64,000 nucleotides of DNA from a bacterium (GCA_029559475.1 JAKQBN010000055.1:7089-71088), one strand, 5' to 3'. Shown: positions 33,479-56,623, counted from the first letter of the stretch. Numbers and translations are program-made. The notes: generated by a model not told the origin, from the letters alone.

Positions 33479-35005
33479 ATGACTTTATCAAAATCAAAAA
33501 TGCTGTTTAATTCGATATTACTGATCTGTACCGTTGTTTCATCACAGACAATAGTTCAGTGGTACACATCAATGGGGAATTTTAAAGGCCAGATGAGAGA
33601 GGATCTCGTTCCTATCACAGCTAATAATTTTATCGATCTTACAAACGCGGGTTTTTATGACGGTCTGATATTTCACAGAGTGATACAGGGTTTTGTCATA
33701 CAGGACGGCGACCCGCTGGGTACAGGCACCGGAGGACCGGGATATACGATACCTGATGAATTTCATCCTGATCTCAACCACAATTCCGCGGGAGTGCTCT
33801 CTATGGCAAATGCGGGGCCTAATACAGGGGGCTCACAGTATTTCATAACGCTGGATTCTTATCCTCATCTTAACGATAGCTATTCGGTCTTCGGTAAGAT
33901 AGTCGAGGGGATGGATGTTGTTTTCAATATCAGTTATGTTCCGGTAGATGATTCAGACAAACCGGTAACTCCTGTAAGAATAGACAGTATCAGAGTCGTA
34001 TATTCACCTCCTGCAGATGGAGTTTATCTAAGCGGTTATATCGAAGGCAGGACGCTTGTTTATGACGAAATATCCCTTGTCAATGTTAATGACCTGTTCT
34101 CGGATCGCGGCGGTGCGGACATTATGCTGAGTATTGAAGGCAATAGCAACCCTGAGATTCTTTCGTGTGCTCTGAACGATTCAGTCCTGACTCTAACGGC
34201 AGGAAATACTTCCGAAGGCTCATCTATAGTTACACTTAAAGGTACCGCGGGTGATTCATCAGAGACTTTTGATATTAAAGTATCTGTAATTGACTATAGC
34301 ATGACAGTGGAAGATTTTGAATCTGGAAGTATAGTCAGATTCCCGTGGCAGACAGGAATATACGGCTGGTCAGCTCAGAATACCGATCCGCAGGAAGGGG
34401 TCTACAGCCTGCAGTCCGACGCGATCGGGCATAGCCAGACCACGGAAATATTCATTGATACATATTATGAAAACGACGGTGAAATAAGCTTCTGGTACAA
34501 AGTTTCGTCCCAGGAAGATTATGATTATCTGGAGTTTTGGATCAACAGGATTAAAAAGATGTCCGTAAGCGGAGAGACACCCTGGAGAAAGATCGCTTTT
34601 CCAGTATCGTCCGGCAACCGCACTTTTAAATGGTATTATAAAAAAAGTGCTTCGGGGGTCTCCGGCGAGGACTGCGCAAGGATCGACAGGATAGAATTCA
34701 GAGGCGGTTCACCGGTATCGATAGAGCCTCAGATCACGCCTGTTCAGGTAGAGCTTTATAAGAATTATCCGAATCCGTTCAATCCAAGCACAGAAATAAC
34801 TTTTTCAATAGACAGAGCTCAACCTGTCAGGCTGTCGGTTTATAATCTTTCAGGCCAATTGGTCTCAGATCTCGTCAACAGGAAGCTGGAAAAAGGTTTT
34901 CATCAAATCAATTTTGATGCTTCAAACCTAAACAGCGGGATTTACTTTTATAAATTGGAATGCGAAGGTTTTACCGGGACGAATAAAATGCTGCTTATCA
35001 AATAG
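33479..35005 (+). CDS. secreted cyclophilin-type peptidyl-prolyl isomerase with extra beta-rich domains and T9SS C-terminal sorting domain
   Basis: FHRVIQGFVIQDGDP, SMANAGPNTGGSQYFIT. The C-terminal YPNPFNPSTEITFSI...SGIYFYKL is a T9SS type-A sorting domain. Confidence 0.85.
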   Translation: MTLSKSKMLFNSILLICTVVSSQTIVQWYTSMGNFKGQMREDLVPITANNFIDLTNAGFYDGLIFHRVIQGFVIQDGDPLGTGTGGPGYTIPDEFHPDLNHNSAGVLSMANAGPNTGGSQYFITLDSYPHLNDSYSVFGKIVEGMDVVFNISYVPVDDSDKPVTPVRIDSIRVVYSPPADGVYLSGYIEGRTLVYDEISLVNVNDLFSDRGGADIMLSIEGNSNPEILSCALNDSVLTLTAGNTSEGSSIVTLKGTAGDSSETFDIKVSVIDYSMTVEDFESGSIVRFPWQTGIYGWSAQNTDPQEGVYSLQSDAIGHSQTTEIFIDTYYENDGEISFWYKVSSQEDYDYLEFWINRIKKMSVSGETPWRKIAFPVSSGNRTFKWYYKKSASGVSGEDCARIDRIEFRGGSPVSIEPQITPVQVELYKNYPNPFNPSTEITFSIDRAQPVRLSVYNLSGQLVSDLVNRKLEKGFHQINFDASNLNSGIYFYKLECEGFTGTNKMLLIK

Positions 35006-42474: not shown

Positions 42475-43209
42475 ATGGCAACGACTAAGATAGAATGGAC
42501 AGAATCAACATGGAATCCGATCACCGGATGCACAAAATTATCCGCAGGCTGCAAATTCTGTTATGCCGAAGTAATGGCGAGAAGGCTCAAAGCTATGGGA
42601 CAGCCGAAATACAAAGACGGTTTCAAGCTTACGCTCCATCCCGACACGCTGACAGAACCTTACACTTGGAAGAAGCCTAAAATGATCTTCGTGAACTCAA
42701 TGAGCGATCTCTTCCATAAAGATGTCCCCGTTGATTACATACAAAAAATATTCAAAGTCATCAAAGACAATCCTCAGCATGTATTTCAGATACTAACAAA
42801 AAGAGCCGACATATTAAGATACTACGACAGTGAAGGCTGGCTTGACTGGCCGCATAACCTTTGGATGGGCGTGACAGTGGAAGATTCAACCGTAACATCA
42901 AGAATTGACTGCCTGAGAAAAACAAAAGCAAGAGTAAAATTCCTCTCCTGCGAACCGCTCCTAAGCTCATTACCCGAACTCAACCTACAAGCAATAGACT
43001 GGGTCATCGTAGGCGGAGAAAGCGGAAGAACACCGCGCCCGATCAAAGAAGAATGGATAATCGAAATAAAAGAACAATGTGAAAAAGCCGGAACAGCATT
43101 CTACTTTAAACAGTGGGGCGGCACCAACAAAAAAGAAGCAGGCAGGCTGTTACAAGGCAAAAGGTACGATCAAATGCCTGAAATGGTCGAGCAAGAAACT
43201 CTAATATAA
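42475..43209 (+). CDS. DUF5131 (phage Gp37/Gp68) family protein
   Basis: MATTKIEWTESTWNPITGCTKLSAGCKFCYA, with three Cys, is the family N-terminus. Also GGESG...FFKQWG. Confidence 0.85.
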   Translation: MATTKIEWTESTWNPITGCTKLSAGCKFCYAEVMARRLKAMGQPKYKDGFKLTLHPDTLTEPYTWKKPKMIFVNSMSDLFHKDVPVDYIQKIFKVIKDNPQHVFQILTKRADILRYYDSEGWLDWPHNLWMGVTVEDSTVTSRIDCLRKTKARVKFLSCEPLLSSLPELNLQAIDWVIVGGESGRTPRPIKEEWIIEIKEQCEKAGTAFYFKQWGGTNKKEAGRLLQGKRYDQMPEMVEQETLI

Positions 43210-43234
43210 AACTTTTTGTTACGAATAAATCTTA
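43210..43234 (+). repeat. junction repeat M3 (aactttttgttacgaataaatctta)
   Basis: Starts right after the DUF5131 stop. Shares acttttt + acgaataaat with M1/M2 at the same spacing (one T fewer). Confidence 0.6.
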
Positions 43235-43279: not shown

Positions 43280-44647
43280 CTAATTCTTAAATATTTTATC
43301 GTATTTTGTGTAATCGAAATTTGGTCCTAGAATTTTACTTGATTTATCTTTTAATTGTTTTGTTATACGATATATTTCATTGTTGTTATAGAATTCCCCA
43401 TTCTCATTGATTAACTTAAATAATAACTCAAAATCACTATTGTCAAAATCGTTTAAAATTTTGCTAATGATATTATCATACGTGCTTAAAGCAGAATAAT
43501 AAGTAAACGATTTTCCACAATAATTTATCAAGAATGTCTTAACTTGAATTTGAGATAAAACAATTTTTGATCTATTATAAAGCTGCATCAGAGCATCTTC
43601 CTGTATACAGTCGTATAGATTTACATTTACATAGCCATTAGGCTCAATAAGTATTTTATCATGTATTTCTTCGATTTTAGATATATGCGCCTCAATGCTA
43701 TTACTTAGAAAATATGCTACTGTAAATAAAGAAATATTTTTGTTAGCTTCGATTTGTATATAATTTTTTACTGTCGAATCTAGGACATTATATATTTCTG
43801 GATATTTGCTAATATATGATGTAAGAGCAGTAATTCGAGAACTACCTTGATTTATAGCCTTATCGTTTATGCTACAAGAAAAATTACTGGGTTTAATATT
43901 GTTGAATTTTTGTGAATTTTGCTTGATTAAATTTATAAAATCTTCAAGATGTTTTTCTGTAAGTGTCTTAATACAAAATACATTCAGATAACGGTTTTTT
44001 TCGCATTCAGAATTATCAAGAATAAATGTAAGTTTCCATAAAGATTCGAATAGTTTTTCTCTCACTGGTTTGTTAATTCTCGAGTAGTATCGTACATTTA
44101 GGAAATCTTCTAATCCCTCAGTACGGACTCTTTCAAAATAATCTGTAGTATTTTTTAAAAATTCATCAATTATCTTTTTACATAATAACGCTTCTTTCTC
44201 AAAGACAATTTCAAACATATTTCTCATGTGGTTTCTAACATTTTCCGGTGTCGGATTTATTAATCTATTTCCATTGTCAATTAATGGATGAGCAGCTATG
44301 TTTCGTTCTTTAACAAGTTCATTTATTCTATGAAATTCTACATCATTAATTAATTCAGTACTATCTTTTATTTCTTGTAACAATGTTTTTTCCCAGTCTG
44401 AAGATGTAGGTTTTAGCTTTTGTTCGTTCTTGATTTTATCAATTATTCTTTTTGCGTTATTATCAGAATATATTTCATCGAGCAAAATCAATTTGTTCAT
44501 TAAATCATAGACTACTACTGAATACAAAACGACTATTGCAGAACGATAATTACCGTTATGATAACTTGATAAGACTTCTTTTAAGTATTCTTTAGTTTGT
44601 ATGTTTGGAATTTTCTTTATCTCATCTTCAATAATAAATTCATCCAT
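43280..44647 (-). CDS. HEPN-like (Rx4H) N-terminal domain protein with unknown C-terminal region
   Basis: Helical N-terminus (NYRSAIVVLYSVVVYDLMNKL) followed by VKERNIAAHP (R-x4-H). aaggtg RBS. Last gene of the six-gene operon. Confidence 0.5.
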   Translation of the reverse strand: MDEFIIEDEIKKIPNIQTKEYLKEVLSSYHNGNYRSAIVVLYSVVVYDLMNKLILLDEIYSDNNAKRIIDKIKNEQKLKPTSSDWEKTLLQEIKDSTELINDVEFHRINELVKERNIAAHPLIDNGNRLINPTPENVRNHMRNMFEIVFEKEALLCKKIIDEFLKNTTDYFERVRTEGLEDFLNVRYYSRINKPVREKLFESLWKLTFILDNSECEKNRYLNVFCIKTLTEKHLEDFINLIKQNSQKFNNIKPSNFSCSINDKAINQGSSRITALTSYISKYPEIYNVLDSTVKNYIQIEANKNISLFTVAYFLSNSIEAHISKIEEIHDKILIEPNGYVNVNLYDCIQEDALMQLYNRSKIVLSQIQVKTFLINYCGKSFTYYSALSTYDNIISKILNDFDNSDFELLFKLINENGEFYNNNEIYRITKQLKDKSSKILGPNFDYTKYDKIFKN

Positions 44648-44679
44648 TCTTCACCTTCTTTTTTTTATTACAATATTAT

Positions 44680-45639
44680 TTAAGAAAATTTATTTAAAAG
44701 AGTTAAAATCTTTTTAATTTCATATTTTATTTCAGGGCTATCATTGATAGAATCAGCGAATTCAGAATCAGTAATGAGCTCTCGAAATGCTCTCATCTTT
44801 TTATAGATACTATCTATTTTTCCAGTATCTTTAACCTGTTCGAAACCATTATAAATATCTTTTTGCCCCGATGCTATCTCAGCGAGAACTTTTTTCGCTT
44901 TTTTATCAGGACACTTAGCTATTTCACCTACCTTTCTGATGTCAGAAGCCTGTTGTATTTCTTTGTTTTTTATTTGCAAAACGAGAGTATTAACTAATTC
45001 AGGATGAGATTTGGTTGCATTATTTATAGATTTGTTCTTGAGCAACTCGTCATAATAACTCCAATTTGTCGGTTCCAAGTCTTTAGTCTCAATCATAAAA
45101 GAGAAGACTTTTAAATATCTTTGAGCATCTCCTTTTTTTATACCTAACTCTTTAGCCATTATGTCAACAGATAGCTTTGATTCTTTACTTCGTCTGTACA
45201 AATATCCAGCCTGCTCGTATGGACTCCAGTCTTTTCTTCCTATAATGTGATATTGCCCAAGAAGAGTAAAAATAGATGATTCATCAATGTCTGAAGGTAA
45301 AATTAAACATTTAACTTTACCCCATGAAATAGGATCTTTTTGACATAAAATTCGATATGCCGCTAATCGGCTATTTCCTTCAAGTACAACTAAATCACCA
45401 TCACGCACAATTAAAGGATCAATTAGACCGCCATTACTTTCAATGGAAAGCCTAAGTTGCTTCACATGCTCCATCGAAATCATCAATTTTTCAATGTTAC
45501 TTTGATCGGGCTTGATGTCATCAGAAACTCTTAGGGCACTATAGACTCGAGGATTATCGACATAGAACTTAAGAGAAGCTTGGAGGATTTCCTCTTCTTT
45601 TACTTGAAACTCTTTTTTGCCAATTGTCAATGTATTCAT
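44680..45639 (-). CDS. ParB/Srx-fold N-terminal domain protein (paralogue 2)
   Basis: DNPR, NGGLIDPLIVRDGDLVVLEGNSRLAAY, GRKDWSPYEQAGYLY. Its start overlaps the SNF2 stop (ATGA). Confidence 0.7.
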   Translation of the reverse strand: MNTLTIGKKEFQVKEEEILQASLKFYVDNPRVYSALRVSDDIKPDQSNIEKLMISMEHVKQLRLSIESNGGLIDPLIVRDGDLVVLEGNSRLAAYRILCQKDPISWGKVKCLILPSDIDESSIFTLLGQYHIIGRKDWSPYEQAGYLYRRSKESKLSVDIMAKELGIKKGDAQRYLKVFSFMIETKDLEPTNWSYYDELLKNKSINNATKSHPELVNTLVLQIKNKEIQQASDIRKVGEIAKCPDKKAKKVLAEIASGQKDIYNGFEQVKDTGKIDSIYKKMRAFRELITDSEFADSINDSPEIKYEIKKILTLLNKFS

Positions 45640-47120
45640 GTTTCACTCTCACTATTTTCATTTAAAATATCTTTAACAAGCTCACCAAAACTATAATCCG
45701 CAACATTTTGGTATTTCTTCAAAACATAATCTCCTTGAGCTAAAAAAGCTGCATTCTGTTTGGCTTTGAGTAAAAGGTCAATCCAAATGTCAATACTATC
45801 TTTAACCATCAAATTATAGATGTTGCAAGTTTTTGTTTGTGAAATACGATGAATTCTATCTTGTGCCTGCAAATAATCATCAAGATTAAAACCGCGATCG
45901 TAAAAAATGACATTGTTCGCAACTGTCAGTGTAAGTCCTTCTTTCGCGGATTGAGGCGTAGCAAATAATACTTTAGCATCTCCATTTTTAAACTCACGTA
46001 CAGAATGTATTCTTTCTTCAATTTTCATTTTTCCGGTAATTTTTACTGCATTAAGGTACTTATACTTTTTACAGAAATGATCAACATTGTCAATAAAAAT
46101 TGACCAAACTATAATCTTTTCATCTCTATTGATTATTTCTTTGATTAATTCATCTAGTTTAGCTTCCTTACCTGAAAAACAGCAGTATAAGTCATCTAAT
46201 AATCTAGGATTTGATGTAATCTGTACCAGTCTTAACAATCTTTTTATTGAATCAGAAGATTCATCAAGTATAGCCACATCATCCCGTTGCAATAATAGTT
46301 GCATCTCTGTTCTAACTTTATCATACATCATGTATTGGGTCTTTTCAAAATCGACAAACACATCATAATACACTTTGTTTGGAAGTGTTATAATTCCGCT
46401 GCTCTTAGTCTCACGTACAGTAAAATCTTTAATTCTCGTAAAAATATTAGATACAGATGATTCAAACACATCTCTTTTTACTTTGTTATTGGACAAATCA
46501 TTAGTAAGATTTGTTGTCGATTTGAACTCAGAGAAATTAGTTCCCAGGCTCTTCCCGTTATCGAGGAAATAAATCTGAGCCCAAATATCATATGGTCTAT
46601 TAGCCACAGGTGTGCCTGTCATTATAACCCGAATCTTAAATAAACTAGAAATCTCGAAAAAATCTTGTGTTAGTCTAGAATCGGGATTTTTTAGTTTCGT
46701 AGATTCATCGATAATAATGGCAACATTCCTAGTCTTTAGAAAAAGCTTGAATCTCACTAACTCACCAGATATAGTTTCAAAATTCGTAATTATTACTCTA
46801 GTAGCGCTATTAAATACATAGTAATTTTCTGTCCGTTTACTTGTTAGGATTCTAGGTGTAATATTAGTATGTATTTCAAACTCGCCACGCCAATTTTCAA
46901 CTAATTGCTTTTTTGTGACAATAAGTACGGTATCAATTTCCAAAAATTCTAACCAATATAAAAGAAGATCAATTGCTATTTTCGTTTTACCTAGTCCTTG
47001 CTCATGAAAGATTGCTGCATATGGCAAATTTTTCATTGCTTCAAAAGCTTCGTATTGATATGGGAATGCATTTAGCTTCGCTGTTAGATTTTGTCCGGGT
47101 AAATTGATTATTTTTCTCAT
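45636..47120 (-). CDS. compact SNF2-family helicase/translocase
   Basis: Motif I HEQGLGKT, motif II IIDESTKLKN, motif VI QAQDRIHRISQTK. 494 aa with no accessory domains. Confidence 0.9.
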   Translation of the reverse strand: MRKIINLPGQNLTAKLNAFPYQYEAFEAMKNLPYAAIFHEQGLGKTKIAIDLLLYWLEFLEIDTVLIVTKKQLVENWRGEFEIHTNITPRILTSKRTENYYVFNSATRVIITNFETISGELVRFKLFLKTRNVAIIIDESTKLKNPDSRLTQDFFEISSLFKIRVIMTGTPVANRPYDIWAQIYFLDNGKSLGTNFSEFKSTTNLTNDLSNNKVKRDVFESSVSNIFTRIKDFTVRETKSSGIITLPNKVYYDVFVDFEKTQYMMYDKVRTEMQLLLQRDDVAILDESSDSIKRLLRLVQITSNPRLLDDLYCCFSGKEAKLDELIKEIINRDEKIIVWSIFIDNVDHFCKKYKYLNAVKITGKMKIEERIHSVREFKNGDAKVLFATPQSAKEGLTLTVANNVIFYDRGFNLDDYLQAQDRIHRISQTKTCNIYNLMVKDSIDIWIDLLLKAKQNAAFLAQGDYVLKKYQNVADYSFGELVKDILNENSESET

Positions 47121-47530
47121 ACGATACTTACGCTCCCGATGTCGTTTAAAATATGAAGCTTGACCGATGAATTTTGTTCCGCTTTGATTCTTTTAGCCAT
47201 GTTTTTTATTCTTGCGTATGAATAAATTGATGTACAAATAATAATATGGCTTTCTTCATCAAATAATGAGGCTTCTCTAATATATGATCTATACTGTTCA
47301 ATACTGTGTTTACGGTCAATATCATTCTCAGTTTTAGCTTCTCCAATTATCAAACGACGAGTATCTTTGTAATATAGGTCAGGTATAAAATTACCAATCG
47401 TTCTTTCTGGTCTTCTGTTACTATCGGGTAAATCTACTAGCACAAGTGCCCTTGCGTCGAAAGGTAATAATAAAAATACATAATTAGCAATTTGGCGAAC
47501 ATAATTTATATGTTCAATAGATTCAGCCAT
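47117..47530 (-). CDS. small PD-(D/E)xK-like nuclease-fold protein
   Basis: FIPDLYYKDTRRLIIGEAKT gives D...ExK with 14-residue spacing. 137 aa. Its stop overlaps the SNF2 start (ATGA). Confidence 0.5.
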   Translation of the reverse strand: MAESIEHINYVRQIANYVFLLLPFDARALVLVDLPDSNRRPERTIGNFIPDLYYKDTRRLIIGEAKTENDIDRKHSIEQYRSYIREASLFDEESHIIICTSIYSYARIKNMAKRIKAEQNSSVKLHILNDIGSVSIV

Positions 47531-47534
47531 AAAA

Positions 47535-48545
47535 TTAATCTTCAGGTTGTATGTCTTTCAATATTTCTTGGAGACCTTCAAAAATATCAAGGAGCATTGT
47601 TTTCTTTTTTTCGTATTCGGGATCACTACCTAAATTTTTTACTTCTTTGTATTCTAGCCTGTTAAGCGCTTCTAAGAATTTTGTACCAAGAACATCATAT
47701 GTAAACTTATCTAGCTCATTATGTGTATTCTCAGTTATAGCTATCTTTTTTACAGCTTCTGAGATATTTCTTCTTAAAAAAACTTTTAACGCTTCTGGTT
47801 CCTTCAGTACTGCGGGTAATTGACGCACATTTTGCGCTGTATCGATGTTATCATCGACAACCCATTTTGCAAAATCATTTTTTGTAAAACCTTTATTGGT
47901 TAGTGCATAAGTTATTGTTGACCGTTGAAGCTCAACAAATTTTGAAAATTCTCTTATATCAAAATCATCACCTTTTTCTTTTACTGCTTTGGCATAATAT
48001 ACTTGCATGTCGCGGTATGCACTTATAAGCTTATTTATTTCTGAAGTATTACCACCGCACATGGATATGATATTTGCCATTGGCAAGCGTTCAATTTCAC
48101 TCAGTTGATGTAGATATTTAGCTTTTGAATACGGATCCCAATCACGAGGACCAACTAAATGTGACTGTAATCTAATGGAATGTTTTTCTGAGTCAGTTAA
48201 GCATTCGTAAATAATGGAACTGATTTTACTCCAAGGGCCTGTTGGATTTAACGCTAGAAATTCTTTATAAATTTGAAGTCTCGTATTCCCTTCGATTACG
48301 ATTAAACGTCCATCCGGTTCTTTACTGACTATAATTGGATGAATAATTCCTCCACTGACCTTAATAGACTCCTTTAGAGTATTATAAGATGTAGATGAAT
48401 CACCGTTACCTGGGTTTGTTAATGCAAGTGCAATAGCTTCACTTGTTATTTCACCCGGATAAATCTCAAGATATTGCTTGATTCTTGGATTGTCGAGGTC
48501 AAGATGAATTTCGCTAATGTCCAATTCAATGTATTTAGGTTCCAT
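47535..48545 (-). CDS. ParB/Srx-fold N-terminal domain protein (paralogue 1)
   Basis: LDLDNPR, SGGIIHPIIVSKEPDGRLIVIEGNTRLQIY, GPRDWDPYSKAKYLH. agaggg RBS. Confidence 0.7.
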   Translation of the reverse strand: MEPKYIELDISEIHLDLDNPRIKQYLEIYPGEITSEAIALALTNPGNGDSSTSYNTLKESIKVSGGIIHPIIVSKEPDGRLIVIEGNTRLQIYKEFLALNPTGPWSKISSIIYECLTDSEKHSIRLQSHLVGPRDWDPYSKAKYLHQLSEIERLPMANIISMCGGNTSEINKLISAYRDMQVYYAKAVKEKGDDFDIREFSKFVELQRSTITYALTNKGFTKNDFAKWVVDDNIDTAQNVRQLPAVLKEPEALKVFLRRNISEAVKKIAITENTHNELDKFTYDVLGTKFLEALNRLEYKEVKNLGSDPEYEKKKTMLLDIFEGLQEILKDIQPED

Positions 48546-48556
48546 ATTTTACCCTC

Positions 48557-49810
48557 TTATTTAGATTTATACTGATTAATTTCTTCGAATCTTAAATCAT
48601 AATACTTCTTTGCGATTTCAGGAAACTCCATTTCAAAATCAATCATTGCTTTATAACAAGAGCAATATCCTTTTATGATGTTTGTATGGGTCAGGTGGTA
48701 TTCCTCATTTGCTTTACAGTACTGTCTAAAGCTTTTCTTTTTTAAAAAGTTTGGTTGATTACACCATCTTGCCAACTGTATATACATTGATTTATATTTA
48801 GATTCTTTATAATCCTCATATCTCATTATATAAGGCAAACATCCATGTTCCATTATTATTTTAATACGTTCAAAAGTATTCTCAATATCTCGTTCATCCT
48901 GGCTATCGTATCCGGTAAGGACATATAATTTTGTGGATTTTTTGTAATATTTTTTCCAAATCTTCAAGCTGTTGGAAATTTTTTCAGCATCTTCAATATG
49001 GTCAAATGCAAATATAAAATCACCTTTGTATTTAACTTTTGCAAGCCGTTCAGCTTTATCAGCTGTCATTAGTCGTATATCTAGACCCTGTCTAAATTGG
49101 AAAGGCTTCCCAGTAGCTATTAATGCATCAAGAATGGTGTAGAAGTCAGGTGAAGCCATAAAATTGTCATCCCATAAATATATGCCTCGTCTTTTTGGGT
49201 CTAAAAATTCCGAGATTGGAGAGTGTTTAATAACACGGTCATATTTCCTGTTAACACAATAACTACATTTTCTAAAACAACCTCTTGTCGTGAATCCGAT
49301 TGAGTAATTCAAGTAATCTTCATATCTAATAACATTCTTAGTAAAATTATCTGTTTGACTAGAAATAAAGTCTGTATAGAGTTCATAATCAGGCATGTGA
49401 TGTTCTATCTTATCCGGTAGATCTGGACTGTCCATCCCATAGAAACCTGTACCTCCGATAATTATCTCTTTATTATCAATTCTCTTTTGAATAACAGCTG
49501 GAATTTTAGTAAAATTAAAAACTTTAGACATTATTAAAAAATCATAAATATCTTCTTTCAATTTATCTGCAATTTCAGAGTAGTCACATATTAATTTAAC
49601 GCTATGTCTGAACTCTTTGCAATATCCCGATATTTTAAGTAAAGCAAGATTTGGATGCTTTGTGCCTTGGTCAAGAAGGTCGGCATCAATTATTCCAATT
49701 TTAAATTGTTTGTCGTTAGCCTCAATTAATTCACAAAAAATGAATCCTAATTTATTTTCGAGGAGTTTGTAGTAATTATTTTTTTGAAGGTTTTCTTTTT
49801 TACTTAACAT
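48557..49810 (-). CDS. radical SAM protein with N-terminal Rossmann/B12-binding-like extension
   Basis: GFTTRGCFRKCSYCVN gives CxxxCxxC. About 170 aa precede the cluster (IGIIDADLL...LALLKISGY). ATG 49810 is preferred over TTG 49819. Confidence 0.8.
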   Translation of the reverse strand: MLSKKENLQKNNYYKLLENKLGFIFCELIEANDKQFKIGIIDADLLDQGTKHPNLALLKISGYCKEFRHSVKLICDYSEIADKLKEDIYDFLIMSKVFNFTKIPAVIQKRIDNKEIIIGGTGFYGMDSPDLPDKIEHHMPDYELYTDFISSQTDNFTKNVIRYEDYLNYSIGFTTRGCFRKCSYCVNRKYDRVIKHSPISEFLDPKRRGIYLWDDNFMASPDFYTILDALIATGKPFQFRQGLDIRLMTADKAERLAKVKYKGDFIFAFDHIEDAEKISNSLKIWKKYYKKSTKLYVLTGYDSQDERDIENTFERIKIIMEHGCLPYIMRYEDYKESKYKSMYIQLARWCNQPNFLKKKSFRQYCKANEEYHLTHTNIIKGYCSCYKAMIDFEMEFPEIAKKYYDLRFEEINQYKSK

Positions 49811-50030
49811 AATTTCCAAGTTTTAAAGTTACAGAATGCTTAACTGAGAGGAAAGTGAGGACTATTTTTGATAGCAATAGACCACTTTTTGTTTAATAGA
49901 ATGAGATATTTTAATGAACTGCTTCGTTTTATAGCTGCGTTATCGTTTCATTTATGACATTAGGAAAATAAAACCTTATGAATGAATAATCAAGTAAATT
50001 GCTTTAGTATTTTGTCTGATATAATTCGAA

Positions 50031-50087
50031 TTAATTAACTTTCTTATACCTGAATACTGCGTAGTTGGTTACGACTGTGCTGTAATG
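50031..50087 (+). repeat. direct repeat R1: displaced copy of the ABC-2 permease 3' end
   Basis: Aligns to 51835-51892 with 4 mismatches and 1 indel over 58 nt. Its minus strand encodes STVVTNYAVFRYKKVN*, against STVVTAYAVFRYKKVN* in the real gene. Confidence 0.9.
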
Positions 50088-50109
50088 TAAAATATATTAT
50101 ACAAATGTA

Positions 50110-50138
50110 TTGACAAAAATAATTGACATGTGTATATT
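50110..50138 (+). promoter_or_regulatory. near-consensus sigma70 promoter of the XRE-Panacea gene
   Basis: TTGACA (50110-15), 17-nt spacer, TATATT (50133-38). A second TTGACA lies at 50123-28. aggagg RBS before ATG 50165. Confidence 0.55.
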
Positions 50139-51693: not shown

Positions 51694-51834
51694 AATAATT
51701 TTCTCCTTTTGCTATTCTGGTTCAATTTAGCAAAAAAAAGGATTAATTCCAAATGAAATATCAAAAAAGGCGGTCAGGGATGTTCTGACGCAGATTTTCA
51801 GAAAAACTGTTAATGAACATTGTGATACTCTTCA

Positions 51835-51892
51835 TTAATTCACTTTCTTATACCTGAATACTGCGTATGCGGTTACGACTGTGCTGTAAATG
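51835..51892 (+). repeat. direct repeat R2 (functional 3' end of the ABC-2 permease gene)
   Basis: Partner of R1. Includes the 16-nt near-palindrome tactgcgtatgcggta. Confidence 0.9.
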
Positions 51893-52962
51893 GTCATTAT
51901 TAAAAAGTGTTTTGAGATGTCTGAGAAGCCTGATCCTTTTAGGAGTACCATGCGCATTGCGTCTATGAAGTATGCTATCGGGTTGAACCATGTTATGCGC
52001 TGCGCCCACATCGGCATGCTTTGTATGGGTGTGAAGAGGCCTGACATGAGCAGGAAGATCACTAGTATGAACCATGAGATGAACATAGCCTGCTGCTGGG
52101 TGTCCGCGAAGGTTGAGATCACGAGTCCGACGGATAGGACTGCCACGAGGTAAACGGCTGCGAAAAAGAATATGAGGGTGAGGCTTCCGTTGAAGGGGAT
52201 GTCGAAAATAAGCTTGGCTATGAATAATCCGAATGTGAGTTCGAAGAGCGCGATGATGAAGAAGGGGGTGAGTTTGCCGATTATGAATTCATATTTTTTT
52301 ATCGGGGTGACATTGATCTGCTCGATCGTGCCTATTTCCTTTTCTTTTACCACGCTCATGGAGGAGAGGAACATTCCGATGAAGGTGACGAGGAGTACGA
52401 GTATGCCCGGTACCATGAAAGTGATGTAATCAAGTTCGGGATTATACCAGTGGAGATATGATACCTGCACCGTTGAAGATTGTACAGGCGTGATGACATT
52501 TATTAGGTTCATGCCTTCATCAATATTAAAATCCCTTACGATGCTCTGGGAATATGCCGCTATTATGCCTGCTGCGCCTCCGTCTATGGCGTTGATCAGG
52601 AATTGGACTTCAGCCTTATTTTCTTTGATGAGATCTCTTTCAAAATTCTTCGGGATGACTATTGTGAGTTTTGAACGGTCTTTTAAGATGCCTTCTTCCG
52701 CATCTTTCTGGCTCTGCGGATAGTCGGTTCTGGTAAAATGGGGAGAGGCTTCAAACTTTGAGGCAAGCCTTGTTGAAAGCGGGCTTCTGTCGAGATCGAG
52801 CACTCCGAAATTTACATTTTTTATTTCAAATGTGGTGGCGTTGGCTAAGATCAGAAGCTGGATGATGGGCATAACGAAGATCATCGGGAGCATTGATCTG
52901 TTCCTGAAAACCTGCCTGAATTCTTTCCTCACTATAAAAAAGATCGTTCTCATTCCGGTCAC
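51835..52962 (-). CDS. ABC-2 type transporter permease (YbhR/YbhS-like)
   Basis: 375 aa. N-terminal TM helix, large periplasmic loop and five C-terminal TM helices, the typical ABC-2 layout. Confidence 0.85.
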   Translation of the reverse strand: MTGMRTIFFIVRKEFRQVFRNRSMLPMIFVMPIIQLLILANATTFEIKNVNFGVLDLDRSPLSTRLASKFEASPHFTRTDYPQSQKDAEEGILKDRSKLTIVIPKNFERDLIKENKAEVQFLINAIDGGAAGIIAAYSQSIVRDFNIDEGMNLINVITPVQSSTVQVSYLHWYNPELDYITFMVPGILVLLVTFIGMFLSSMSVVKEKEIGTIEQINVTPIKKYEFIIGKLTPFFIIALFELTFGLFIAKLIFDIPFNGSLTLIFFFAAVYLVAVLSVGLVISTFADTQQQAMFISWFILVIFLLMSGLFTPIQSMPMWAQRITWFNPIAYFIDAMRMVLLKGSGFSDISKHFLIMTIYSTVVTAYAVFRYKKVN

Positions 52963-55705: not shown

Positions 55706-56623
55706 TTAATCCTCAAAAGGATGGATCTTGTTAAAGTCCGGCCGGTAATTATTGTGACTGTCAAACTCCTGAACCCAGCCGTTATCAAGTCCGAGCCTGT
55801 TCATTTCTTCGGTAACGCGCAGATAATCAGCTTCTTTGATCTTATGATTGAGCGCTTCACGGTCGAATTTCTTAGGAGCCCAGTACTGGGACATAAGCGA
55901 AATATTTATCTTAGGCGATATTTCTTCCGCGATCGTTTTTAGAACCGCGAGGCTGTTTTCAACCTCTCCGGGCAGGATCAGGTGCCTGATGATTAGACCG
56001 CTCTCAGCGTATCCTGAATCGTTAGTGATCAGCAATGAGCCTTTCTGACGATACATTTCCTTTATAGCTTTATAAGCAATTTCAGGATAGTCAGGCGCAT
56101 CTGAAAGTTCTTTTGAAAGAACGGGATCGCTGTACTTGAAGTCAGGCAGATAGACATCAACGATGCTTTCGAGCTCCTTCAAAGTCTCAACTCTATCGTA
56201 CCCGTTTGAATTATATACTATGGTCGGCTTGTAAGATCTTTTATGAAGCTCTTCAATGATAGAGAGCATCTGCGGGATCTGATGCGACGGAGAAACAAAA
56301 CCCAGCACCTGAATGCCTTTATCGAGGATATCTATGATTTTATTTACGGCTGCTTCAAGCGTCATTTCATACCTGTCAGCTGCGAATTTATTATCGCTGA
56401 TCTGATAATTCTGGCAGTAAACGCACTGAAGATTACAGTGCGCAAAGAACACATTGCAGATCCCGTGCGGGCCGCTTACCGGAGGCTCTTCACCCTTATG
56501 AATGCAAATCGAGGAGATATATATCTTATCATCGAGCCCGCACCAGCCCTTTTCTCCCTTTGTGCGGTCAATTCCGCAATTCCTCGGACACAATGTGCAG
56601 TGTTTTAATCTATCTGACAACAT
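55706..56623 (-). CDS. PflX-like (COG1313-type) radical SAM protein
   Basis: CTLCPRNCGIDRTKGEKGWCG, HKGEEPPVSG, FFAHCNLQCVYCQNYQIS (CxxxCxxC). Confidence 0.75.
   Translation of the reverse strand: MLSDRLKHCTLCPRNCGIDRTKGEKGWCGLDDKIYISSICIHKGEEPPVSGPHGICNVFFAHCNLQCVYCQNYQISDNKFAADRYEMTLEAAVNKIIDILDKGIQVLGFVSPSHQIPQMLSIIEELHKRSYKPTIVYNSNGYDRVETLKELESIVDVYLPDFKYSDPVLSKELSDAPDYPEIAYKAIKEMYRQKGSLLITNDSGYAESGLIIRHLILPGEVENSLAVLKTIAEEISPKINISLMSQYWAPKKFDREALNHKIKEADYLRVTEEMNRLGLDNGWVQEFDSHNNYRPDFNKIHPFED

Follow-up and report, generated by a model that had tools for sequence, protein, structure and literature searches.

The 64,000-nucleotide (nt) stretch of bacterial DNA considered here (GCA_029559475.1, JAKQBN010000055.1:7089-71088), referred to as the window, carries on its minus strand, between positions 43280 and 49819, a tightly packed block of six genes, g1 to g6. 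Judged from sequence, g1-g5, encoding a radical S-adenosylmethionine (SAM) enzyme (g1), two ParB/Srx-like paralogues (g2 and g5), a minimal PD-(D/E)xK nuclease (g3) and an SNF2-family ATPase/translocase (g4), appear to be a widespread, strongly syntenic operon that has not previously been described as a system. We consider it probable (about 0.6) that they constitute a modification-dependent restriction system, in which g1 would write a self-mark on DNA and g2-g5 would restrict DNA lacking it. The remaining gene, g6, is a separate gene of the already known DARNA (PD-T7-3) abortive-infection type, occupying the position where related loci usually carry another gene, c3.

In order of transcription, the block comprises g1 (48557..49819, an open reading frame of 420 amino acids (aa)), g2 (ParB/Srx-like paralogue 1; 47535..48545, 336 aa), g3 (47117..47530, 137 aa), g4 (45636..47120, 494 aa), g5 (ParB/Srx-like paralogue 2; 44680..45639, 319 aa), and g6 (DARNA/PD-T7-3 HEPN; 43280..44647, 455 aa), all on the minus strand. 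The true start of g1 is probably the ATG at 49810, and the database protein has 417 aa. The junctions from g1 to g6 measure 11 nt, 4 nt, -4 and -4 (4-nt overlaps), and 32 nt. An initial annotation of the window, the sequence-only reading, had given exactly these six minus-strand frames, coordinates and spacings, and the motifs it had read (CFRKCSYC, DNPR/EGN[TS]R, D...ExK, SNF2 motifs I, II and VI, and RNIAAH) are all present and conserved in homologues. It had also judged the block AT-richer than the core by eye, which agrees with a G+C content of 28-34% (43-50 kb) versus 40-47% in the flanking core. No minus-strand terminators were predicted within the g1-g6 block.

The g1 protein had no match in Pfam or NCBIfam (E <= 0.01) nor in PADLOC, and a sequence-profile search of the PDB returned no relative; the family thus seems too divergent for the curated Pfam and NCBIfam radical SAM models. 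In PHROGs, it corresponds to phrog_9298, annotated as "radical SAM domain protein" (5e-52). Across 47 homologues, the three cysteines of the CxxxCxxC motif (C181, C185 and C188) are invariant, as are C327, C353 and C368 in the C-terminal part, with C386 nearly so, and these last four might be the ligands of a further cluster or of zinc. The AlphaFold model of g1 (predicted local distance difference test (pLDDT) 87.4, predicted template modelling score (pTM) 0.84) contains a radical SAM core, a partial TIM barrel, placed after an N-terminal Rossmann/B12-like domain. Its structural matches were MgmA (value 15.7), AprD4 (15.0), RimO (15.0) and MiaB (13.3), followed by CysS (12.9), TsrM (11.4) and TokK (9.5), and they comprise cobalamin-dependent radical SAM methyltransferases, a B12-domain dehydratase and methylthiotransferases. 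According to the model, the methyltransferases and methylthiotransferases are the nearest structural relatives, and these fold neighbours suggest C-methylation or methylthiolation as the chemistry of g1. AprD4, which has the same N-domain and does not use B12, matches the fold as well as the class B methyltransferases do. What g1 shares with MgmA, CysS, TsrM, TokK, RimO and MiaB is the N-terminal Rossmann-type domain and the CxxxCxxC radical SAM core; identity, however, is only 10-14%, with no match at the sequence level. Methylthiotransferases have a three-Cys auxiliary cluster in the N-domain and a TRAM domain, whereas g1 has no conserved Cys in residues 1-170 and no TRAM match. In addition, the known substrates of the class B enzymes and methylthiotransferases are proteins, tRNA and small molecules, while the genomic context of g1 points to DNA. 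The family is large, with >5,400 homologues scored and, in an exhaustive search, 1,677 clusters at 50% identity (E <= 1e-3), or 145 at E <= 1e-30.

The signature residues of both ParB/Srx-like proteins are invariant, namely D16, N19, P20 and R21 (DNPR, Box I-like) with E85, G86, N87, T88 and R89 (EGNTR, Box II-like) in g2, and N29, P30 and R31 (NPR) with E87, G88, N89 and R91 (EGNSR) in g5. The two are full-length paralogues of each other (hhalign probability 99.8%, E = 3e-29). Neither matches Pfam ParBc, and comparison with Noc, ParB and SbnI in the PDB gave weak scores (E 0.03-0.5), the alignment of g2 covering the correct motifs. Matches were obtained to the ParB-like PHROG families phrog_4715 (g5, 4e-12; g2, 1e-4) and phrog_620 (g5, 9e-5) and, through N-terminal regions, to the PADLOC models PDC-M38A (g2, 4e-7; g5, 3e-10) and PD-Lambda-5_A (g2, 1e-6). 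For g3, only 22 homologues were found in 5.8 billion proteins, and Pfam, NCBIfam, PADLOC and PDB sequence profiles gave no informative match. Its residues E3, D51, E64, K66 and Q79 are conserved, with D51, E64 and K66, the D...(D/E)xK triad, invariant. Kinship with PDDEXK_11 was considered and dropped, as profile-profile comparison detected no relationship, and the fold was settled by the structure model (pLDDT 92.9), which is that of a restriction endonuclease. The g4 protein scores well above the Pfam cut-offs for SNF2-rel_dom (85.6 bits, cut-off 24.9) and Helicase_C (70.4, cut-off 23.5), and its motifs I (GLGKT, 42-46), II (DEST, from 138) and VI (QAQDR, from 418) are invariant in 18 orthologues. 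Its PADLOC matches are confined to the helicase parts of ZorD, DpdE and DrmD, and its best PHROG is the phage SNF2 helicase family phrog_62 (7e-91). The proposal in the sequence-only reading that SNF2 and PD-(D/E)xK form the DNA-targeting arm is plausible.

The strength of the operon as a unit comes from its conservation elsewhere. An alignment of the g1 family was scanned against one genome per species (185,579), which detected a relative in 272 species, and 80 loci were retained. In 20 of those, g1-g5 occur together, usually ordered g1-g2-g3-g4-g5; three loci have g2-g3-g4-g5-g1 instead, and in a Methanomethylophilaceae archaeon g2-g5 lie on the strand opposite to g1. Reciprocally, anchoring on g2 (ParB1) in metagenomes yielded >519 relatives; of the 80 loci examined, 33 had sufficient flanking sequence at either end, and g1 was found in 32 of these. 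The gene order is kept across phyla, in chromosomal defence or toxin-antitoxin contexts. The c3 gene (~225 aa) lies 3' of g5 in 38/42 ParB-type metagenome loci with room, and the closest relatives of the window (Bacteroidota, g1 78-81% identical) all read g1-ParB1-g3-SNF2-ParB2-c3. Many genomes encode c3 as a C-terminal extension of g1, in a fusion protein of 600-640 aa. No Pfam, PADLOC or PDB relative of c3 was found, and Pfam searches with 20 members returned scattered insignificant matches to helix-turn-helix (HTH) and winged-helix families; its conserved motifs (IPQFS, RKYGENHxK and LSxSTxxRR) look like tandem HTH units. Since a few other complete loci also do without it (L010, L078, L113 and L135), c3 may be dispensable. 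A weak c3 match of a hidden Markov model (HMM) in the window, near 55706-56623 (E = 0.008), is spurious.

Further features were noted in the related loci. In three ParB-type operons (L009, 15184-17595; L013, 15196-17532; L016, 15148-17547), c3 is the N-terminal domain of a larger protein (780-800 aa) whose remainder has no Pfam or PADLOC match. Methanogen-related archaea and the viruses that infect them have the g1 family and the ParB module too, as seen in Thermoplasmata archaea (L070/L078) and in the virus Caudoviricetes sp. vir335 (L249), with Methanomassiliicoccales as host, and this indicates cross-domain exchange within gut and rumen communities. Also, in unrelated genomes AbiH, Stk2, AIPR/Mrr-like and AbiEii genes stand beside g1 systems (L010, 8578-10275; L025, 8005-9504; L056, 11931-13775; L083, 10962-11747), which fits a general location of these systems in defence islands.

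The gene g6 does not belong to this conserved unit. It matches the PADLOC model PD-T7-3 (PDLC04108) with E = 5e-104, over residues 1-452 against 1-428 of 432, and its N-terminal HEPN Rx4H motif, RNIAAH, occupies residues 115-120 (R115-H120). PD-T7-3 has been renamed DARNA, a single-gene abortive-infection system of 456 aa with an N-terminal HEPN motif R117x4H122, which forms a dodecamer and cleaves tRNA anticodon loops once activated by single-stranded DNA bound by the phage single-stranded DNA-binding protein (bioRxiv 10.64898/2026.02.22.705581). Activity is known for the E. coli protein only, and there DARNA works alone (bioRxiv 10.64898/2026.02.22.705581). The likeness of g6 to it extends over the full length of the model, the protein size (455 versus 456 aa) and the position of the motif (115-120 versus 117-122); what differs is that g6 is appended to another operon across a 32-nt spacer. 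This spacer is AT-rich, and g6 has a Shine-Dalgarno sequence of its own (GAAGGTGA). Relatives of g6 were found in none of the 80 g1-anchored species loci and none of the 80 g2-anchored metagenome loci. Moreover, the DNA of the window is colinear with that of its nearest relatives (77-80% identity) only between 49761 and 44707, up to a point ~27 nt short of the stop codon of g5. Because g6 is a known standalone gene, is absent from the related loci and lies beyond the point where colinearity stops, the conserved unit is best described as five genes with an appended DARNA. From its sequence, g6 is an independent DARNA gene in the usual place of c3, probably co-transcribed with g1-g5; the possibility that it is a divergent c3 was discarded, there being no detectable similarity. 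The sequence-only reading had thus been right that the first five genes form a syntenic unit and wrong to include the sixth, whose HEPN protein it had taken for the RNase abortive arm of the system; that the usual sixth gene, c3, is missing here could not be seen by that reader. Likewise, its statement that the architecture matches nothing named holds for g1-g5, a combination that none of PADLOC-DB v2, Pfam and NCBIfam recognises as a system, and fails for g6.

The case for g1 as a writer rests on its neighbours in the loci where the ParB module is replaced. In 30 loci, g1(+c3) stands with PbeA (an HKD nuclease-helicase; PADLOC 4e-208) and a CxC-type ABC ATPase (PbeC/DndD-like; 2e-67), loci that also hold a small gene of 145 aa in the PbeD/DndE position. 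Other partners of g1(+c3) are PDDEXK_11 nucleases (6 loci), DndF/DndG/DndH (4 loci; E 1e-116 to 0), GmrSD/SspE-like DUF262-DUF1524 proteins (4 loci), and a 788-aa protein with the DISARM proteins DrmA (5e-170) and DrmB (9e-59) (2 loci). Only 6/76 untruncated g1-anchored loci have no such nuclease or helicase partner, and no other recurrent candidate modification gene was found in the partner-swapped ones. In known systems, the modification slot is filled by DndABCDE (Dnd), SspABCD (Ssp), DrmM (DISARM) or cytosine methylases with MTaX1 (CxC), and g1(+c3) appears to take the place that these systems give to the DNA-modification module. The recent reappraisal of Dnd raised the possibility that CxC/DndD-centred systems lacking the genes for phosphorothioation may "mediate entirely different modifications" and did not mention a radical SAM partner (PMC10853773, 2024). 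As to the DISARM-like cases, the two loci (L080, 8475-18293, and L081, from Paludibacter and Bacteroidales metagenome-assembled genomes) consist of g1, the 788-aa protein, DrmA and DrmB; no methylase is visible there, and the radical SAM enzyme may be their writer.

The reverse exchange was seen once. A single ParB-module locus lacks g1 (L115, metagenome contig UMJX01010879.1, 1-11630), and in g1's place a D12-class N6-adenine methyltransferase (8e-65) and an N6_N4 methyltransferase (6e-67) abut ParB1. Since two DNA methyltransferases hold this position, it seems that methyltransferases can replace g1, at one locus only. A DpnII-family restriction endonuclease occupies the c3 slot there, followed by a TPR-PIN (PIN-TPR-GreABC) protein, so the ParB1-g3-SNF2-ParB2 module is embedded in an apparent DpnII-type restriction-modification cassette.

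Phages carry g1 in a markedly different form. In IMG/VR, 182 relatives of g1 were found on viral contigs and 80 loci were examined, 38 of which contain terminase or portal genes and so come from real phage genomes. A solo g1 (~365 aa), without c3 or a restriction-like partner, is found in 76/80 loci, and the full multi-gene version in only two. Phage g1 belongs to a DNA-modification cassette directly 5' of the packaging genes: the immediate upstream gene encodes a ParB-N/N6_N4 DNA methyltransferase (phrog_498, a family present in 42 loci), a C5-cytosine methylase often comes next (19 loci), and SAM-synthetase-like (21 loci) and amidoligase genes (23 loci) lie one gene further out. Overall, 39/80 loci have a methyltransferase gene within three genes of g1; in 17 cases this gene directly precedes g1, and in 16 of them the two overlap by 20-47 nt. 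Deposited genomes agree: in the Oscillospiraceae phage NatCom_21982 a DNA methyltransferase gene precedes the radical SAM gene (XTK83330.1), with the terminase further downstream, Clostridium phage phiCT453B likewise has a solo g1 gene, and a Methanomassiliicoccales virus has an SNF2 helicase, the radical SAM enzyme and a ParB-like gene in this order. An alignment of the phage ParB-methyltransferase proteins was heterogeneous and was set aside. Solo carriage beside orphan methyltransferases is typical of a protective DNA-modifying enzyme and hard to square with a synthase of antiviral small molecules.

Comparison with described systems places the operon near several and inside none. As proposed for g1-g5, Dnd, Ssp and Pbe/CxC-ABC combine a modification module with interchangeable restriction modules, and ParB-superfamily proteins occur in Dnd (DndB) and in Ssp (the DUF262 domain of SspE), as ParB-like proteins do here (g2 and g5). 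In other genomes, DndFGH, PbeA/CxC-ABC and SspE/GmrSD-like genes are immediate neighbours of g1(+c3), a link of neighbourhood only. The operon, however, has none of DndA/C/D/E or SspA-D, and its proteins match no Dnd, Ssp or Pbe model in PADLOC. The Dnd/Ssp writer is a PP-loop sulfurtransferase with a cysteine desulfurase, whereas the presumed writer here is a radical SAM enzyme, and the putative restriction module (two ParB paralogues, a minimal PD-(D/E)xK and SNF2) differs from DndFGH, SspE and PbeABCD. With DISARM and Dpd, the operon has in common its multi-gene make-up and the pairing of an SNF2-type helicase with a DNA-modification function, here a proposed one. Besides, g4 matches the DrmD and DpdE helicase models, Dpd includes a ParB-like DpdB, and in L080 g1 adjoins DrmA/DrmB where DISARM holds its methylase. 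Among the ten proteins scanned, the DrmD match involves only the C-terminal helicase lobe of g4 (1.6e-17), with no DrmA, DrmB or methylase, and DrmA/B/C and the methylase are lacking in the window as a whole. For Dpd, the DpdE models match g4 alone, DpdA/B/C have no match, and neither the DpdA transglycosylase nor preQ0 pathway genes are present in the window. For Zorya, g4 matches only the helicase part of ZorD (443-879 of 908), without the Mrr nuclease domain, and ZorA/B were not found among the neighbours scanned. Membership of g1-g5 in DISARM, Dpd, Zorya or Dnd therefore fails on the defining genes, and the sequence-only reading had been correct in setting aside DISARM, Dpd and Dnd/Ssp.

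The published literature offers one reported precedent for a DNA-modifying radical SAM enzyme, gp53 of phage M6, an isomerase of thymidine hypermodification (PMC8989533). It resembles g1, as proposed here, in being a radical SAM enzyme that modifies DNA, in its case post-replicatively and in a phage anti-restriction setting (PMC8989533); it differs in belonging to a spore-photoproduct-lyase-like subgroup and in acting on an amino-acid-decorated 5-hydroxymethyldeoxyuridine (5-hmdU) intermediate, while g1 is not accompanied by 5-hmdU pathway genes. In the open-access papers and preprints searched, we found no description of the g1 family or the operon, and no radical SAM enzyme reported with Pbe, DndFGH, ParB or SNF2. 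Ophion (radical SAM, PHP and PRTase) is a different system, and the Thermus-phage radical SAM/DUF483 module is unrelated.

The surroundings of the block are those of a low-GC island of defence and toxin-antitoxin genes. It adjoins an AbiL pair, DUF5131, HTH-SocA/Panacea and PIN genes, with RhuM, DUF2442/DUF4160 and AAA_14-DUF4143 genes further to the left, and the AbiL-like pair and toxin-antitoxin modules named in the sequence-only reading were found as described. That reading had called the array repeat-bounded; direct repeats do flank the block (43208-43233 and 50030-50085), but they belong to different families, so that this description holds only in part. The low-coordinate edge is the third copy of the 26-nt direct repeat D3 (35565, 37320 and 43208-43233) which, together with D2 (36696 and 38022), partitions the island into cassettes. 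On the other side, a copy of D1 (50030-50085) lies inside the intergenic region 5' of g1 (49820..50122), which g1 shares with the divergent HTH-SocA gene and which also contains, upstream of g1, a minus-strand promoter-like site (50116-50089; consensus match only). This 56-nt repeat recurs at 51834-51889 (93% identical), where it overlaps the 3' end of an ABC-2 permease gene (51835..52962). Between the two copies lie the HTH-SocA/Panacea and PIN genes, and the arrangement looks like a target duplication left where an insertion entered the end of the permease gene. The plus-strand DUF5131 gene (42475-43209; Pfam 9e-99) is convergent with DARNA and matches the PADLOC candidate models PDC-M41B and PDC-M30B (~1e-124); its protein also has a weak NCBIfam match to "radical SAM mobile pair protein A", although none of the adjacent genes could be recognised as a partner. 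A second radical SAM gene (55706-56623, minus strand; Pfam Radical_SAM and Fer4_12), unrelated to g1, lies in a cluster at ~51.8-58.8 kb with two ABC ATPases, two ABC-2 permeases and an outer-membrane efflux protein, which could serve peptide maturation and export. Finally, the peptidyl-prolyl isomerase encoded at 33479-35005 (plus strand) bears a Por_Secre_tail (type IX secretion) sorting domain, suggesting a Bacteroidota/FCB host.

Taken as a modification-dependent restriction system, g1-g5 would operate as follows. Most likely, g1 covalently marks the DNA of the cell in which it is made, assisted by c3, with its HTH-like motifs, where this is present. The SNF2 ATPase g4 would be the motor that translocates on DNA, and the PD-(D/E)xK protein g3 would cut DNA that is unmarked. 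By analogy with ParB-superfamily proteins, g2 and g5 may act as clamps or readers gated by nucleoside triphosphates that tell marked from unmarked DNA, a role comparable to that of the DUF262 domain in SspE/GmrSD, which takes their place beside g1 at other loci. Phages would carry g1 alone to mimic the mark. A writer combined with a restriction module would be, by analogy, the logic of restriction-modification, Dnd, Ssp, DISARM and Dpd. Gene content, folds, conserved motifs, synteny, partner exchange and phage context are observed; that DNA is the substrate, that the mark denotes self and how g2-g5 share the work is inferred from them. Several points weigh against this interpretation. Both the substrate and the product of g1 are predicted from sequence and context, and the Pfam Radical_SAM model (PF04055) does not match the protein. 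The HMM scores behind the ParB assignment of g2 and g5 are weak to moderate. The exchange of g1 for methyltransferases is one locus, and DndFGH and CxC can act as standalone defences, so adjacency is no proof of a writer role (PMC10853773). The c3 gene is absent from the whole 64-kb window (tblastn and HMM), and the copy found here may thus be impaired. Lastly, ParB-like proteins can activate DNA writers (PMC13229309), which makes the division between writer and restriction arms uncertain.

This last point underlies a different arrangement, in which one or both ParB-like proteins sit on the writer side, loading or activating g1 on double-stranded DNA, and the restriction arm is reduced to SNF2 and PD-(D/E)xK. 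DpdB plays this part for DpdA, and ParB-dependent activation has been documented for phage thymine dioxygenases on double-stranded DNA (PMC13229309). In addition, g2 directly follows g1 after an 11-nt gap, and phage g1 recurs beside ParB-N-methyltransferase fusions or ParB-like genes. We nevertheless consider this arrangement unlikely, as g1 does without a ParB-like gene where its partners are Pbe, DndFGH or PDDEXK_11 and in the majority of phage loci, and because g2-g5 always stay together, even in L115, where methyltransferases replace g1, the ParB pair would belong with the restriction module. The phage and partner-swap contexts also bear on what g1 makes, for which the sequence-only reading had offered either a DNA self-mark or a small-molecule signal. 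Radical SAM enzymes do make antiviral molecules in prokaryotic viperins and perhaps in Ophion, and ParB/Srx domains bind nucleotides, so g1 might produce a viperin-like nucleotide or a signal that inhibits phage or activates the ParB, SNF2 and nuclease effectors. Such a role is disfavoured because phages carry g1 alone beside DNA methyltransferases, coupled translationally to them and near a SAM-synthetase-like gene; the fusion of g1 to c3 with its HTH-like motifs and the replacement of g1 by methyltransferases in L115 argue in the same direction. The small-molecule option is thus very unlikely, and the self-mark is the better supported half of that earlier proposal.

The abundance of g1 in viruses could also mean that the block is a domesticated or remnant phage or mobile-element module, joining an anti-restriction modification to SNF2/ParB replication-partition functions, and is not a host defence. 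The affinity of g4 to phrog_62, the matches of g5 to phage ParB-like families, the 182 viral-contig relatives and the viral genomes in which SNF2 helicase, ParB-like genes and g1 lie close together would agree with this. Against it, phage structural, integrase and replication-initiator genes are absent from the block and its flanks, the operon has a dedicated restriction-fold nuclease, its order is conserved across phyla in chromosomal contexts, and just 2/80 viral loci have the full multi-gene version; we regard such an origin as highly improbable. Least probable of all is that the six genes make up one system with HEPN as an integrated RNase arm. Co-transcription is likely, with no terminator predicted in the 32-nt spacer, and g6 shares one repeat-flanked block with g1-g5. 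However, g6 is a full-length DARNA, a protein that functions on its own in E. coli, none of the 160 g1- and ParB1-anchored loci contains it, and the nearest relatives, colinear until just before the g5 stop, carry c3 in its place.

Beyond the window, a wider and more tentative proposal, which we place slightly short of even odds, is that the g1 family is an unrecognised class of DNA-modifying radical SAM enzymes that write a chemically new mark (such as a base carrying a C-methyl or methylthio group, or an altered backbone). This mark would serve as self-signal for at least six restriction modules in bacteria and archaea, namely ParB-SNF2, Pbe/CxC, DndFGH, SspE/GmrSD-like, DISARM-like and PDDEXK_11, and would be copied by phages. 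To our knowledge, spore photoproduct lyase and gp53 of phage M6 are the only radical SAM enzymes reported to act on DNA, and g1 would then be a new enzymatic route to DNA modification. It would also be the missing writer for those Pbe/CxC, DndFGH-adjacent, SspE-like and DISARM-like loci that have no phosphorothioation or methylase genes, a question left open for such loci in the 2024 reappraisal of Dnd (PMC10853773). The ParB-nuclease-SNF2-ParB module would represent a new restriction architecture. Given that g1 relatives occur widely among gut, rumen and digester anaerobes as well as their viruses, the mark, if it exists, could confound or enrich nanopore and single-molecule real-time (SMRT) epigenome calls and could shape phage-host interactions and barriers to gene transfer in these microbiomes.

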